From Heptranchias perlo (lineage: Eukaryota), in NCBI RefSeq assembly GCF_035084215.1, contig NC_090351.1:23994001-24058000 (forward strand): DNA of 64,000 bases, written 5' to 3'. The translations under genes and the position numbers were made by a program. Position 1 is the first letter of the stretch. Each line of letters begins with the position of its first letter. Below, one piece after another: positions 1 to 9,226 of the stretch. The notes under the pieces are model-generated. The model searched no databases. It was given only the letters and a program-made list of their open reading frames with translations, and was not told where the DNA came from.

Positions 1-223
1 CTTCCGTTGGTTTTTACCTCAGGCGTACGCTGACGAGATTCTCATGAAATTTCCGTGTAAGCTGCTGGTGGCAAGGTTAGCACAGAAACTGATGTAAATT
101 TCGGGATAATTTTGGCATAAATCAGATCGAGGCGATTCTTTCTCTCACTATATTGTTGAATATAAAAAACTTTCTGTTGAAACTTATGCTGCAATTTTAT
201 TGCTAGGATCTGTCAAAGACAGT

Positions 224-1579
224 GGGGTAGATTTTGACTTTTGGGCAGCTGACTGATGGGGTACACTGGTCGGCTGCCCATTGCTGCAGTGAAGAGGCCT
301 TCTGTCGTTAAGAGGCTGCCGCATCATTTAAATTGGGCAGGCGAGCTTCAGGGCGCCAAACAGGGATCGAGATCATGATCATGGCGGGTGAGGGTCCTGG
401 GGCAGCAGCGGCCCAGATTATTTTTGTGGGCCCTGGAGCTCCCCACAAAAATAATTGAAGACTTACCTTTACAGGGCCTCTTCACTTTCATCACCCATGG
501 AACTGCACAAGCTCCGATCAGTTCCTACCTAAAATGGCAATTGAGGTCCTGTTTACATGCTAGGACCCTGATTTCCATATTAATAGAGACCTGAAACAGG
601 TGGGCATTTTGGACACCCGGTGGCAGGCCCCTTTTAAAATTGAGCTGGTCGCATCGTATGTTAACGAGATGGTAAGGCCAACGACCCCATTTTGAGGCCA
701 TTACTGCCCAATGGGCAAAACTGTGGCAAATGGAATTCAATGTAGGCAAATGTGAGGTCATCCACTTTGGAACAAAAAAGGATAGAACAGGATACTTTCT
801 AAATGGTAAAAAGTTAAAAACAGTGGATGTCCAAAGGGACTTAGGGGTTCAGGTACATAGATCATTGAAGTGTCATGAACAGGTGCAGAAAATAATCAAT
901 AAGGCTAATGGAATGCTGGCCTTTATATCTAGAGGATTGGAGTACAAGGGGGCAGAAGTTATGGTGCAGCTATACAAAACCCTGGTTAGACCGCACCTGG
1001 AGTACTGTGAGCAGTTCTGGGCACCGCACCTTCAGAAGGACACATTGGCCTTGGAGGGAGTGCAGCGTAGATTTACTAGAATGATACCCGGACTTCAAGG
1101 GTTAAGTTACGAGGAGAGATTACACAAATTGGGGTTGTATTCTCTAGAGTTTAGAAGGATAAGGGGTGATCTGATCGAAGTTTATAAGATATTAAGCGGA
1201 ACGGATAGAGTGGATAGAGAGAAGCTATTTCCGCTGGTTGGCGATTCTAGAAGTATGGGGCACAGTCTAAAAATTAGAGCCAGACCTTTCAGGAGTGAGA
1301 TTGGAAAACATTTCTACACACAAAGGGTGGTAGAAGTTTGGAACTCTCTTCCGCAAACGGTAATTGATACTAGCTTAATTGCTAAATTTAAATGTGAGAT
1401 AGATAGCTTTTTGGCAACCAAAGGTATTAAGGGATATGGGCCAAAGGCAGGTATATGGAGCTAGATCACAGATCAGCCATGATCTTATCAAATGGCAAAG
1501 CAGGCACGAGGGGCTGAATGGCCTACTCCTGTTCCTATGTTCCTATTAACGCCAGGTTAGGACATTCAAAATCGACTCC
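224..1579. mobile_element. Non-autonomous Harbinger-type element (MITE) interrupted by a CR1 insertion
   Basis: TIRs ggggtagattttga (224-) and tcaaaatcgactcc (-1579); 3-bp TSD AGT at 221-223 and 1580-1582. Confidence 0.75.
711..1546 (+). mobile_element. 5'-truncated CR1 (HER1-like) LINE: RT C-terminus and 3' UTR
   Basis: ORF 730-1464 WQMEFNVGKCEVIHFG...LYKTLVRPHLEYC...RGDLIEVYK...FYTQRVV; 3' tail cctactcctgttcctatgttcctat. Confidence 0.92.
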
Positions 1580-2123
1580 AGTGATGTTCCCACTGGAGGT
1601 GGTACATGCAACAAAAGAGTTGGTTTCAGCTGGTATCTCAAGCAACAGTGTCACCTCTAAAGGCAATATAAGCACAGATCTGCTTTATCAAGTGGAGACG
1701 GAGATAAATTCTGGTTGCTGACAGTAGGAGCCAGTTGAAGTATTATAGTTCTGTATAAGCCAGTGAAGTAGTTTTGCTATTGCAGTCTGTATGATGCTTC
1801 CCCAGGAGTTAGGAAAAGTACAATCATCTGCACAGAGATCCTCTGGGCGCTACATATAGCAAAATCATTGGTGCGTTCTTTAGAACATGTTTGCGAAATT
1901 ATTATACATAGCGTACAGTAGAAACCTTCCCTAACAGAATCAGAAAAAGGTAATATGTTGGCTCTATCAGTAGCACATATATTCCTAATAGATAGTCACA
2001 GTGACTTTAAAGCAACTGCATATTCGCTAGCTGGCATAGGTTCAGTTGTTTTAAAGTGGAACTGGCTGTTGTAGAACTGCTCTGCAATATAAATAAATTT
2101 GAGAGACCTTGATCACAAAGGAG

Positions 2124-2154
2124 GCTTCTCGGCCTTTTGGCTAAGATCAAGTGT
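2124..2154 (+). ncRNA. U2 snRNA 5' fragment (nt 4-34) heading the Tx1 element; not a complete gene
   Basis: gcttctcggccttttggctaagatcaagtgt is identical to nt 4-34 of vertebrate U2; the rest of U2 is absent. Confidence 0.9.
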
Positions 2155-2302
2155 GTTCCTATTCGGGCTTATTTTGGATCTGAGCTAATCGGAATGCTGG
2201 CTGCGACCTCATGCGCTCGTAAAGTGCGGACTTTGCTGCGATTGTTCAATTTGTGTGCTGGCTCCGCCCCTAAATTTGCATAGGGATTACATCAATACTA
2301 CA

Positions 2303-3821
2303 ATGACAGTGAAGGGCACCTGGGCACTAGGCCATGGTGTGCCAAACACCGTCAGGGTGACGGTAAAGACAGTTGAAAGCGTTACGCCGATGGATCGTGC
2401 GTTTTTTATGAAACGAGTTTTGTTCGACTGTTGTGGATTCGAAGCAACGGACATCTTCTGCCTACAGATTTCCCTCGAAGCGGATATTTCGATGTCACCT
2501 TCAAGACCATCGCTGGATGCCAGAAATTTCTTCAGATGTTCAAGGAAAAGGGGAGCGAAGGACCTCTGGCGATTCTCACTGCGGAGCTGGTCTTCACCCT
2601 CCCAACGCAGAGGAATTGGAAGCTGATTGTACACACTTACAACCCACACATCCCGGTCGTCGATGTGCTGACGTTCCTCGCCAGATACATCAACGGGGCG
2701 GAGAACAGCGTTGATGTCAACGATCGTTTCGGGATCTGGACCAGTAAGAGGGAGGTCACAGCAACGTTGAGAGTGGTCGCCCACGGCAACATCCTCCATC
2801 CCCCTCCAGCTTCGCATCGGAAGAATTCGAGGGTACATCATGTACGTGGGGCAACCCAGAGTCTGACGCACCTGTGGCAAATCCAGCCACGTGGCGGCCT
2901 CCTGCACTGCAACTGTCTGCAAGAACTGCAAGCAGGAAGGGCACCAGACTAAGGACTGCAAAGAGAGCAAGCACTGCAACCTGTGCGGGGAGGATGGCCA
3001 TCTCTACAAGGTCTGCCCCAAACGCAGCTTCAGCTACGCCCAGGCGGCCAAGAGCAACACAGCGGAGGAGGAGGGGGCAACAAGCAAGGCTGCCTCAAAG
3101 AAGGCCAAGAACCCTCGCCCCACCGCGACCCCCCCCCCCCCCCCCCCGAGAAGGCCCCGACCCAGGAAGACAAGGAGCGAGGAAAGGCTCAAGCCGAAAA
3201 CTGCCAGACCCCGACACCGAACTCTGAGCCTTCCCACCAGAAGACAGAGTCCATGGACGAGGAGGCAGCAGAGGAAGAATGGCAGATTGTGAGCAAGAAG
3301 AACAGAAGAGGAAGCCAGAGGAAAGGAAACGAGATCCTGCCGACACTGCAACCAGGGGTAAAAGTGCGCTCGAGTCGCAATCGGACTACAGCGACTACCC
3401 CACGTCTGACGAGGAGGGACAACAGGAGAGAGGCAGCCAGGCTTCTCACTGAAAGCGTCAAAACTTCCAAGGCAACAGTGACGGGATCGACACCCCTATC
3501 TCCAGAACAATGGAAGCGACAACGCCTCCAGCACCCTCCAGCTCCGGGACGCTGGGAGCAACACCGCAGAGAGCGAAGACCGGCTCCAGGAAACTGGGAG
3601 CAGCAACAACAAGGAGCCCCAGCCAATCGAGGATCGCACGGGCTCTCCACCCGACACCATGCTGCCGATGTCACCCAGACGGAACGACGATCCCCTGTCT
3701 GAGGCAGAACAGGACTCGTACCTCAGCTCAGGGAGCGTGGAACACTTTGCACAGATCACCTGGATGTAGGGACATGGCCAAGAGCTGGAAAGAGCAAACG
3801 GACTGTCGGTTGAGACTTTAA
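2303..3821 (+). pseudogene. Tx1 ORF1 (gag-like, CCHC zinc knuckles), frameshifted
   Basis: Pieces in ORFs 2255, 2431, 2891, 2983: NTVRVTVK...DFPRSGYFDVTF; CKNCKQEGHQTKDC; CNLCGEDGHLYKVCP; SYAQAAK; EEEWQIVSKK. Confidence 0.85.
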
Positions 3822-3833
3822 ACTGTTGTTAAA

Positions 3834-6800
3834 ATGGGTCTGAAAGTCACATCCATTAACGTGCGTAGCGTTAAATGCACTACGGGATGTGTGCCGACCT
3901 TGGACTACCTGGCCAAGGTCAAGAGCGACCTACTGTTCATGCAGGAGTTCTGGCACCTCAGCAATTACCGGCAATGGTCGCAGCGGTGGGCCCATGGGCC
4001 GTCGATCTGGTCGGGAAGCAATGATCGCCGTGCCTCCGGCCTGGGGATTCTGCTGTGGGGAAGCAACTTCACCATCACCGAAGTAAAGGAGGTGATTGGG
4101 GTTCGCCTCCTCGTAGCAGACATAATGTACAAAAACGCCCCACTCCGGCTGATCAACGTGTGCGCCCAACTCTGAACAGCGAGGGGCTGGCCGTCTTCCA
4201 GCAGCTCCCACTGCTGCTGGCAACGTCCTTGCCGGTCGTTCTCGGCGGTGACTTCAACTGCATCATCGATGCGGCTGGACGATCTGGCAGAGCCGACAAC
4301 AAACTGGACGCCATGTCCAAACTCCTGATGGAAGCGGTGAAAGACGCCAAGCTGTGCGACGTCTTCAGCAACCCTGCAGACGGAGCGGCGTGTCAATACA
4401 CCTGGTCCAGACCAGACGGGTCCGTCCGTTCCAGGATAGACTTCCTGTTTGCGTCCCCAGTGCTCAAGGTCAGATCCACCAAGGTCACACCGGTGTTCTT
4501 CTCTGACCACTGCCTCCTCCTGGCCGACTGTCACCTACAGGACGATCAGAGAGTGGGCAAGGGGGATATGGAAGCTGAACGTGAAACTGTTGACCCCGGG
4601 AAACATTGAGGAACTGAAGAGGGATTACAAAGGTTGGAGAACCGTAAAACCCCTCTTTGATTCCCCAGTGCACTGGTGGGAAGCCATCAAGGCGAACACC
4701 AAGAGGTTCTTCATCCTCAAAGGTGTTCAGAAGGCGAGAGAGAGGCAGTGGGAAACGTCCCGACTCCAGAAAAGCATGCAGAATCTTCTCCTGCTGCAGT
4801 CGATGAGGATTGATGTCGGGGAGGAACTCAGAGAGATGAAGGACCAGCAAACCTCGCTCTTTGCCTCCGAGGCCTTCAAGATCATCTTCCGGTCCAGAGT
4901 CCGCTCTGTGGAGCAGGACGAGACTTGCTCGCGTTTCTTCTTCCAAAAGGTGCACAGAGAGAGCTCTGTGATCAGCAGCCTGAAGGAAGAGGGCAGCTCA
5001 GTCACGTCCTCGCAGCCCGACATACTGAGGATCTGCAAATCCTTTTATGCCGGACTGCACGACGCAAAGCCCACAGACAGCGCAGCCTCCCAATCCTTCT
5101 TGCTGTCTATCACGGAGGTTCTAGACGACAGCAAGCGGGAGAGTCTGGATCACCCGCTAACTCTGGATGAACTGACAAAGGCTGTCCGTTCCTTCAAGAA
5201 GAGTAGGACTCCCGGAAGCGACGGCTTACCAGTGGAGTTGTACTCGGCTCTGTGGGACTGGATAGGCCTAGACCTGCTGGAATTGTACGGGAGTATGCTT
5301 CTGGCAGGCAGCATGTCAGACTCCATGAGGAAAGGCATCATCACCCTTATCTACAAGCGGAAGGGGGAGAGGGAAGAAATCAAAAATTGGCAAACTATCT
5401 CACTACTTAACATGGACTACAAAATCCTGTCCAAGGTCATCGCCAATTGGGTCAAGTCAGCCCTGGAGGTGGTGATCCACCCAGATCAGACCTGCACCGT
5501 ACACGGCAGGAAGATCTCTGATAGCCTGGCGCTACTCAGGGATACGATCGCCTACGTGCAGAACAGGGGGTGAACACATGCCTGATCAGCCTGGACCAGG
5601 AGAAGGATATCCTACACGTACATGATGGACGTGCTCTCCAAAATGGGGTTTGGGGAGGGAATCCGCAATTGGATCCAACTGCTCTACACAGACATCAGTC
5701 GCGCCGTTTCAATCAACAGGTGGGAATCAGAAAGCTTTCCGGTTAAATCTGGAGTCAGGCAGGGCTGACCTATTTCCTCCATCTTGTTCATGTGCTGCAT
5801 CGAACCCTTTGCCGAGTCCATCAGGAGGGATGCAGGCATAGGAGGGGTGACGATCCCAGGCTGCGGAGGCACTCAGGTCAAGGCCTCCCTGGACATGGAT
5901 GACGTCACTGTCTTTTGCTCGGATCAGCTGTCGGTCCGCAGATTGATGAACATCTGCGACCAGTTCGAACTGGCCTCGGGGGCCAGGGTAAATCGTACCA
6001 AGAGCGAGGCCATGTTCTTTGGGAACTGGACCAACCGATCCTTTGTCCCCGTCACCGTCAGGTTGGATTACCTGAAGGTGCTGGGGAGCTGGTTCGGGGG
6101 GGCCGGGGTGTGCACCAAAAACTAGGAGGAGCGTATTGCCAAGTCAAGCAGAAACTGGGACCGTGGGATCGACGATCCCTCTCGAAAGTGGGCAAAAACC
6201 TGGTCATCAGTTGCAAGGTGCTCTTGGTGTTGCTGTACGTGGCGCAGGTCTGGTCCATACTTCGCTCCTGCGCCGCGACAGTCACCCGAGCCGTTTTTCC
6301 ACTTTATCTGGAGATCAAAAATGGACCGTGTCCGCTGGGACACGATGTACAAATCTCCGGAGATGGGGGAAAGGCGTGCCCAACGTGGCCCTCATCCTGA
6401 TGGCCACCTTTGTGTGCGGCTGCATCCAGCTGTGCGTAGACCCTCGGTACACAAACACAAAGTGTCACTACGTGCTGAGGTTCTATCTGTCCCCAGCGTT
6501 GAGAAGGATCGTCCTGGCCATGCTGCCATGGAACGGTCCGTCCAGTTGGACCATTCCGCCCCACCTGTCATTCGTCGAAAAGTTTATGCAAAAAAACACC
6601 CTTGACCACAAGGCGTTCAGCAAGTGGTCAGCACGTAACATCCTCGAGACCCTGAGGGAAAAGGAGATGGTGGATCCTGTCAATTGTTTCCCTGAGCAGA
6701 CTGTCAATGTCATTTGGCAGAATGCCTCATAGCCTAAGCTTTCAAACAAGCACCAAGGCCTAACTTGGCTGGTGGTGAGAAGGGCCCTTCCTGTCAGATC

Positions 6801-7221
6801 CTTCATGCACTCTTGGAGTCTCAGCACCACCGTGCGCTGTCCCCGAGGAGGCTGCGGTGGAGACAAGACCGTCACCCACCTCCTTCTTGAATGTGTCTTT
6901 GCAAAGAAGGTCTGGAGAGAGGTGCAGTGGTATCTGTCCAGGTTCGTCCCGAGCAGTTCCGTAACACAGGACTCTGTGCTCTACGGGCTGTTTCTGGGGA
7001 CGCACACCGAGACGGACATCAATTGCTGCTAGAAGACCATCAACTCGATGAAAGATGCCCTTTGGTCTGCCCGAAACTTGTTGGCCTTCCAATACAAGGA
7101 GCTGTCCTCGACCGAGTGTTGCGGGCTGGCACATTCCAAGGTCCAGGACTACGTGCTCAGGGACGCACTGAGGCTGGGTGCGGCCGCCGCAAAGGCTCTG
7201 TGGGGAAAGGCAACCATTTAG
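3834..7221 (+). pseudogene. Tx1 ORF2 (APE endonuclease, reverse transcriptase, zinc finger), several stops and frameshifts
   Basis: SINVRSV, LFMQE, GGDFNC, SRIDF, SDHC (APE); PGSDGL, ISLLNMDYKILSK, GVRQG, DMDDV (RT); CPRGGCGGDKTVTHLLLEC; ends at TAG 7219-7221. Confidence 0.9.
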
Positions 7222-7906
7222 AGCCTTCCCGCCATTGTATACCGAGGGGCTGCAATCAGGGAAAAACCCCTCGGGCAGAATGTAAAATTCAAATTGATGT
7301 AATGTACCTGTCATGAATCTGTAATGTACCTGTAATGAATCTGTAATCAATAATCTGTATTAAGTGTAATGCATTGAGGCACCCTAGACTGTCATGAACT
7401 GTAATTATGTACAATGCGTTCATTGAACTGTACTTGATGTAACCTGCAAATTGTATTATCTGTATTGTGTACGTTTGGAATGTGATCTGACAACTGTATT
7501 GTATGTATTGCTGCAAATTTTATGAATAAAGTATATTTTTTGAAAAAAAATTTGAACCAGGAGCTGATACTGCAGAAATGCTTCAGGAAATGGTTCTACA
7601 ATATATCTGCACTGAAAAGGATACTTTGTCTTCATACTTATCAGGGAGGGTGCTAGATACACATTTACTTCTGCCTCTGTATTTCTACATATTCTTATTA
7701 CGCACTTGATCTATATTTGCAATGCAGTGCACTATATGTGAAGACAAAGATAAGTCATGCTTCATGTACCTTTTACTCAGAAAGGTACTGTAATGTTATG
7801 ATTGCTATACTTTAGCTGACATTATTTTTGTACACATTTTGAAATATTCCTGACCTCTTTTATCACATGCGTTGCACTCTGATTCTCTGATTACATTGCT
7901 TTTTAG

Positions 7907-8633: not shown

Positions 8634-8732
8634 TGGAGCAAGGTAAAGGTGTAATGATAATTGAATAACAAGAAGGTAGGTCAACTGTCCAGCCAGTCAG
8701 AGGCTAGGTCATTGAGTCACTCTTGTGTATGT

Positions 8733-9226
8733 CTTCCAGTACAAGGAGCTGTCCTCCACCGAGTGTTGCAGATTGGCACTTTCCAAGGTCCAGGACTACG
8801 TGCTGAGGGACGCAATGAAGTTGGGTGTGGCCGACGCAGAGGATCTGTGGGGAATGGCTACTGTTTAGTGCCTTCCTGCCATTGTAGGCATTGTAGGCAG
8901 GAAGGCACTAAAGGGGCTGCAATCAGGGAAAAACCCCCTCAGGCAGAATGTAAAATACAAATTTATGTAATGAAATGTAATGTACCTGTAATGAATCTGT
9001 AATCAACAAGCTGCATTGATTGTGTTGCAATGAGGCACCCTAGAATGTCATGAACTGCAATTATGCATGATGTGTAACTGTATTGTTGGAATCATATTTG
9101 AATTGTACTATATGTATCTTGCAAATTGTATAATCTGTATTGTGTACGTTTGAAATGTGATATGACAACTGTATTGTATGTATTGTTACAAATTTTATGA
9201 ATAAAGTATATTTTTTGGAAAAAAAA
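8733..9226 (+). mobile_element. 5'-truncated copy of the same Tx1 family (ORF2 end and 3' UTR)
   Basis: Aligns by eye to 7087-7550 (tacaaggagctgtcc...ccaaggtccaggactacgtgct...tatgaataaagtata, A tail). Confidence 0.9.

Follow-up and report, generated by a model that had tools for sequence, protein, structure and literature searches.

The 64-kb window analysed here (NC_090351.1, positions 23994001-24058000, contig label C30, in the 3.25-Gb genome of Heptranchias perlo that was searched) carries a broken Tx1-type long interspersed nuclear element (LINE) whose 5' end is assembled from pieces of two small nuclear RNAs (snRNAs), U1 and then U2 (Table 1). The original prediction, made from the window's sequence, had recognized the fusion of U2 nucleotides (nt) 4-34 to such an element, and this holds: the U2 piece matches the genome's own U2 genes throughout and the element behind it is full-length. 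The head does not start with U2, however, as had been thought, because a stretch of U1 stands in front of it. Nor is a target-site duplication (TSD) lacking, for once the U1 piece is included an 8-bp TSD, AAATTTGA, directly adjoins both ends of the unit; a match of equal score at the same place turns up in 1.0% of mismatched flank pairs. Since AAATTTGA brackets U1, U2 and the element, all three came in by one insertion. Two smaller signs are now read differently. The recurring aggag is U1 nt 36-40 in its 5' copy and, to judge from the letters, chance in its 3' copy, and gttcctat, taken for a U2 remnant, is a conserved octamer with which the element opens, reading GTTCCTTT in young copies. Three things had been overlooked: the U1 piece, the TSD and a target site in U1 genes, described below.

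Table 1. Parts of the U1- and U2-headed element, in window coordinates
Feature	Position	Strand	Basis
5' TSD AAATTTGA	2095..2102	+	identical to 7548-7555; last 2 nt common with U1 head
U1 snRNA nt 18-41 head, 5'-truncated	2101..2124	+	1 mismatch in 24 against the genome's own U1 genes; blastn E 1.3e-6
U2 snRNA nt 4-34 head	2124..2154	+	0 mismatches against own U2 genes; Rfam; G at 2124 doubles as U1 nt 41
Element 5' untranslated region (UTR)	2155..2302	+	aligns from nt 1 of U2-resident copy L127; junction recurs in other copies
Open reading frame (ORF) 1, frameshifted: two ZCCHC3-type RNA-binding domains and CCHC knuckles	2303..3829	+	Pfam PF23057, PF23058, PF00098
ORF2, with stops and frameshifts: apurinic/apyrimidinic (AP)-type endonuclease, reverse transcriptase (RT), zf-RVT	3834..7221	+	Pfam PF03372, PF00078, PF13966
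3' UTR, AATAAA at 7525-7530	7222..7542	+	sequence; tail motif at 1320 exact genomic places
Short A tail	7543..7550	+	sequence
3' TSD AAATTTGA	7548..7555	+	identical to 2095-2102

Positions 2155-7550 of the window cover 1-5452 of an intact relative at 89.7% identity. Queries (tblastn) with the frames of copy L127 match ORF1 in several frames and ORF2 as four frame pieces (80-86%). The window copy is dead, and ordinary in effect. At 5.45 kb and with the remnants of two ORFs, it falls outside the definition of the SINEU elements, which are non-coding and shorter than 500 bp. The U2 head scores 31.7 bits against Rfam U2 (E 1.4e-4), and at the gathering score Rfam has no match in the whole window. 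No U2 or U1 promoter and no U2 3' remnant is found near the element, and the 3' flank, as originally stated, is not U2.

Keno is a U2-specific LINE of the Tx1 clade with an AP endonuclease (Kojima and Fujiwara 2004, as cited in PMC6136364 and PMC4640811), and the original prediction had correctly placed its target near this position of U2. Family tails lie at the published Keno site, U2 nt 39, which they adjoin at 120 exact genomic places (a reversed control gave none), and the 3' flank there reads TCTGTTCTTATCAG; the window copy itself is off target. Elements at these junctions agree with the window element at 85-92% in their long matches. After the tail, U2-resident copies resume U2 at nt 38/39, so that only 3-4 nt are lost and not the 7 nt first proposed. 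Both the window pieces and the intact frames of L127 have, by Pfam, an AP-type endonuclease and RT in ORF2 and CCHC and RNA-binding domains in ORF1, an ORF1 build that we take to be a mark of Tx1. Judged by its target, the family is Keno, an assignment made against the published site.

Copies that reside in U2 genes indicate where the U2 head comes from. L127 is full-length and sits in a real U2 gene, with 260 bp of upstream sequence, U2 1-34, the element, U2 38-191 and flank in that order. Together with L134 and L135, also in U2 genes, it belongs to a set that is 99-100% alike, has open frames of 541 and 1139 amino acids and is about 90% alike to the window copy; these three are the only copies with both frames open among 27 aligned. 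U2 gene upstream sequence stands before 18 of the first 30 young junctions (88 in all), and both types of upstream sequence also stand before uninterrupted U2 genes.

The head is a property of the family. A survey with the first 301 nt as query gave 973 candidates, of which 40 were scored; after one duplicate and one U2-resident copy were dropped, at least 12 nt of U2 up to nt 34 were present in 36 of 38 copies, a rate that is not unbiased, as the survey queries contained U2 letters. The window copy thus has U2-headed relatives, and of the expectation that full-length copies start with U2 nt 1-34, the end at nt 34 stands while the 5' starts are variable. Neither of the two results that would have overturned the original prediction turned up. 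U2 upstream sequence at -12 to -1 is missing in 78 of the 80 copies fetched in full, and most dispersed young copies match L127 at 97-99.6%. Of 55 copies with both ends, 34 have a TSD of 7-30 bp directly at the head, against a null of 1%, in a count that leaves out L032, L208 and L211-L216 (common flanks), L066 and L217 (U2-resident) and any copy whose 3' end was not recovered. On the 3' side, all 13 dispersed tail-U2 loci carry U2 38-191, about 95-100 nt of gene flank, an AATAAA-like signal and an A run, and all 17 cluster tail-U2 loci continue into gene flank. The dispersed loci are 3' transductions, and active sources therefore sat in U2 genes. The U2 head is likely the co-transcribed 5' end of the host gene, and an RNA starting at U2 +1 would be the simplest reading of resident and transduced copies. 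The original proposal of a source transcribed from a U2 promoter, its chimeric RNA inserted off target, accordingly fits the family, given intact copies behind a U2 promoter and dispersed copies with head and 3' read-through and no promoter; it fits less well for the direct parent of the window copy, taken up below. Its other suggestion, a self-contained U2-headed LINE with a fixed head of its own, is unneeded and less likely.

Several arrangements were seen alongside these copies. Keno copies also occupy a second class of U2 gene (L175, L132-L135, L066), whose upstream sequence is unrelated and which has variant bases. At L344-L347 and L351 (C12:65.90-65.95 Mb, C1558), many U2 array units have an insert of ~215 bp between U2 nt 33 and 38/39, composed of Tx1 3' UTR (86% to L127 over 86 nt) with a long A tail; it is possibly a U2-headed form resembling a short interspersed nuclear element (SINE) behind a U2 promoter. 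L136-L139 and many tail-U2 matches on C38 consist of a rearranged Keno 3' piece, U2 38-191, flank and A tail, in many repeats along C38 of which the two checked share their downstream flank; this is likely a transduction amplified by segmental duplication.

Most copies of the family are off target, and the strict U2 specificity that is a Keno trait is not found. The genome holds 1320 exact family tails against about 120 U2 junctions, counts that come from different search patterns, and of 47 tails sampled on C1 and C2, all of them in the family (88-98%), one adjoins U2. Dispersed sites are weakly U2-like (2.12 of 6 vs 1.62, p about 0.001), mostly at A|T. GTTCT 4 nt behind the nick was considered as a general rule and set aside: it fits the U1 and U2 sites and is not enriched in 52 dispersed flanks. 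No single repeat is common to all 47 sampled 3' flanks, and no other snRNA target appears in the 40 loci (47 tails) on C1 and C2, histone, U3, U4 and U5 genes not having been searched directly.

A second recurrent site lies in U1 genes. A U1-resident source predicts tails beside U1 near nt 41, and 15 of 17 tail-U1 pattern matches join U1 at nt 35-42; in 13 of the 17 the match to U1 extends to nt 101, in 2 it ends early and the other 2 are chance. Family tails are found at U1 nt 35-41 in four U1 gene clusters as well as in dispersed U1 read-through copies. In one cluster L253, a young, full-length, U2-headed copy, has a U1 promoter before it (deleted from -48) and U1 35-164 after it, and L248, L258 and L260 precede U1 3' parts in three more; under generous assumptions the chance expectation for the U1-cluster placements is 0.0009. 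Among the best 22 matches to the read-through U1 flank, 12 have a Keno tail with U1 taking over at nt 35-43, 8 start within U1 or the flank through 5' truncation, 1 is rearranged and 1 is a real U1 gene. All or part of the Keno tail, U1 35-164, U1 flank and an older Tx1 tail follow one another in 20 dispersed copies. The family, of Keno type, targets loosely and has its second site in U1 genes. Two further observations concern the same genes. At L252, L254, L261 and L262 the junction with U1 nt 35 is made by the older Tx1 tail that trails U1 genes, which may reflect insertion of U1 read-through RNA at this very site in U1. At L299 (C10:18.24 Mb), a 10-bp TSD encloses a truncated Keno and, behind it, an entire U1 (starting at -10) with flank and tail, which amounts to a whole U1 moved by the element.

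Heads containing U1 are rare. Exact U1-U2 heads number four (the window copy, L031 and L032 with common flanks, and L034), and to these come L056, which is U1-only, and the decayed L263; the U1 piece is doubled in L031/L032. Seven matches on C21 have no snRNA head and were not counted. The U1-headed copies form one clade on the 5' 1400 nt of the body (5 rows, 98/90) and again on the 3' 950 nt (4 rows, 98/91). In an ORF2 tree of 54 rows, all nine U1-linked copies (six U1-headed, three U1-tailed) lie to the same side of one branch (96/88).

Could a U1 gene have been the launching site of the window copy? Taken together, the U1 piece at the head, the TSD and the existence of a U1 target site make its direct parent more likely U1-resident than U2-resident, and the window copy likely descends from such a source, itself not found. 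It is on balance probable that the window holds a broken, off-target Keno-type LINE whose head of U1 18-41 and U2 4-34 stems from use of the promoter of a resident snRNA gene, in a lineage that moved from a U2 to a U1 gene. Transcription would start at the snRNA +1 of the host gene and yield a chimeric RNA. A U2-headed copy would then have entered a U1 gene at nt 35, with U1 35-41 duplicated in the process, to produce a source of the form promoter-U1(1-41)-U2(5-34)-Keno-An-U1(35-164). The stop of the heads at nt 41 and the resumption of U1 after the tails at nt 35 would mark the two edges of a single insertion that duplicated 7 bp. The RNA of this source may have been inserted at the window site by target-primed reverse transcription, ending 17 nt short of its 5' end.

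A number of results weigh against this account. The five exact U1 heads are all dispersed, and no present-day arrangement of U1 promoter, U1 1-41 and Keno was found in the genome. The U1 5' part is missing at L248, L258 and L260, as it is at many copies in U2 clusters. Upstream of the U1 tails, the copies at 6 loci are all 5'-truncated and none is long enough to show a U1 head; TSDs of at least 10 nt surround the whole unit in only 3 of 7 U1-tailed copies tested. Junction forms differ within the U1-headed clade (nt 41; nt 37 plus 4 nt; nt 39 without U2), a variety that template jumps could equally give. The ORF2 branch is short (0.0025), the tree is unrooted and its bootstraps are not settled, while on the 3' 950 nt the U1-tailed copies fall outside the U1-headed clade, with L250 near young copies. 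U1-tailed copies share only 4/11, 4/11, 3/7 and 1/2 of the diagnostic sites, and the U2-tailed L094 also has 3/7. The bias of the head survey belongs here as well.

The strongest competitor, an unlikely one that nevertheless deserves some weight, keeps a U2-resident source for the U2 head and obtains the U1 piece by a jump of RT onto free U1 snRNA at G(C)TTCTC, the chimera then spreading from another promoter or arising repeatedly. Kojima proposed template jumps for SINEU heads (PMC4494074), and the near-homology at the U1/U2 junction, the three junction forms, the doubling of the U1 piece in L031/L032, a short additional stretch of U2 ahead of +1 in L193/L208 and the failure to find a U1-resident parent all suit them. 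Independent jumps would scatter over the tree, yet the U1 heads are one clade; they also group with U1 3' read-through copies and end at nt 37-41, within the nt 35-41 stretch where insertions occur in U1 genes. That U2 stem-loop I has become a fixed head of the family itself, transcribed from an internal promoter independent of snRNA genes, is more doubtful still. The junction is indeed constant in old and young copies, dispersed young copies match U2-resident ones at 97-99.6% and most tails are off target (1/47 sampled at U2). But U2-resident sources would likewise give a constant junction, the only copies with both frames open, three of the 27 aligned, are in U2 genes (the frames of dispersed young copies were unchecked), copies with U2 3' read-through require a source located in a U2 gene, and snRNA genes have upstream promoters, no internal one being reported (PMC4494074). 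A simple insertion of Keno into a U2 gene now decayed at the window locus, which would account for U2 nt 4-34 standing where the 5' part of the target gene belongs, has almost no chance of being right, as no U2 promoter, 3' part or flank lies nearby and the TSD stands outside the U1 and U2 pieces, so that it is already contradicted.

A wider and more tentative proposal is one that we regard as possible but would not yet bet on: rather than at the U2 sequence alone, Keno may aim about 35-40 nt behind snRNA-type start sites, and could therefore hop between snRNA genes, swap promoters and stack 5' ends, which would cover the origin and transcription of U1- and U2-headed LINEs and of SINEU.

Other observations stand apart from these questions. 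The window has a second, more distant Tx1 3' fragment at 8731-9226 (+), 1.2 kb downstream of the element, 78% to L127 and with a like tail, and, at about 716-1546 (+), an RT-like open frame of 262 amino acids from stop to stop, without a Pfam match, presumably the 3' end of a CR1-type LINE. Elsewhere in the family, a 41-42 bp unit in the C-terminal part of ORF1 has grown into long tandem arrays in L040, L044, L047 and L063, and L041, L058, L067, L181, L206 and L248 are inserted right behind another copy's tail.

Much of what the window displays has precedents. U1- and U2-headed autonomous Tx1 elements, stacked heads and loose targeting are already in print (PMC4494074, PMC4640811), and a U2-headed autonomous Tx1, such as the original prediction envisaged, has been described as Tx1-11_Crp (PMC4494074). 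Only Keno, Utopia, Dada-U1 and Dada-U6 are listed as snRNA-targeting elements in the 2015 Utopia paper (PMC4640811), and the legend of Fig. 3 in the SINEU paper also names U5 as a Tx1 target (PMC4494074). No non-LTR element targeting U1 was found in the literature searched, which excluded Repbase, subscription papers and the supplements of PMC4494074 (S1-S6) and PMC4640811. Here a target-specific LINE uses a second snRNA gene at a nearly equal distance from the start, with little sequence in common between the two sites, which bears on target choice and target change in Tx1-type elements.

With Keno as published, the present family shares the 3' U2 target, the AP-type endonuclease, two ORFs and intact copies inside U2 genes; it differs in being mostly off target, in its second recurrent site in U1 genes and its U1-headed lineage, and in carrying 3' read-through of U2 and U1 genes to new sites. 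Utopia, according to passages of PMC4640811, uses the same U2 site, shows weakened specificity in reptiles and loses the 5' part of the target gene on insertion, but it has a restriction-like endonuclease and belongs to another clade, and those passages give no U1 site. Dada-U1 also targets U1 snRNA genes, though its members are DDE DNA transposons that use another U1 site and no RNA intermediate (PMC3706591, PMC8869645). R2, the 28S rRNA-specific LINE, likewise relies on host gene transcription (cited in PMC4494074); its RNA is an RNA polymerase I co-transcript trimmed by a ribozyme (PMC5035012), whereas the present copies keep the host gene 5' end. The crocodilian Tx1-Mar elements are autonomous Tx1 LINEs that cluster with Keno and, like the present family, carry a head of U1 (Tx1-2_Crp, Tx1-2B_Crp, Tx1-4_AMi) or U2 (Tx1-11_Crp), and SINEU-1 and SINEU-2 stack U1 and then U2 (PMC4494074). 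Tx1-Mar is described as preferring Mariner-N4_AMi, and its heads are ascribed to template switching with the promoter left open (PMC4494074); the present genome, by contrast, has copies resident in snRNA genes and 3' read-through. The same paper counts the transcription of snRNA-headed retroelements among the open questions, and this genome offers a testable answer in its snRNA-gene-resident sources, its promoter-less daughters with the gene 5' end and its daughters with 3' read-through.

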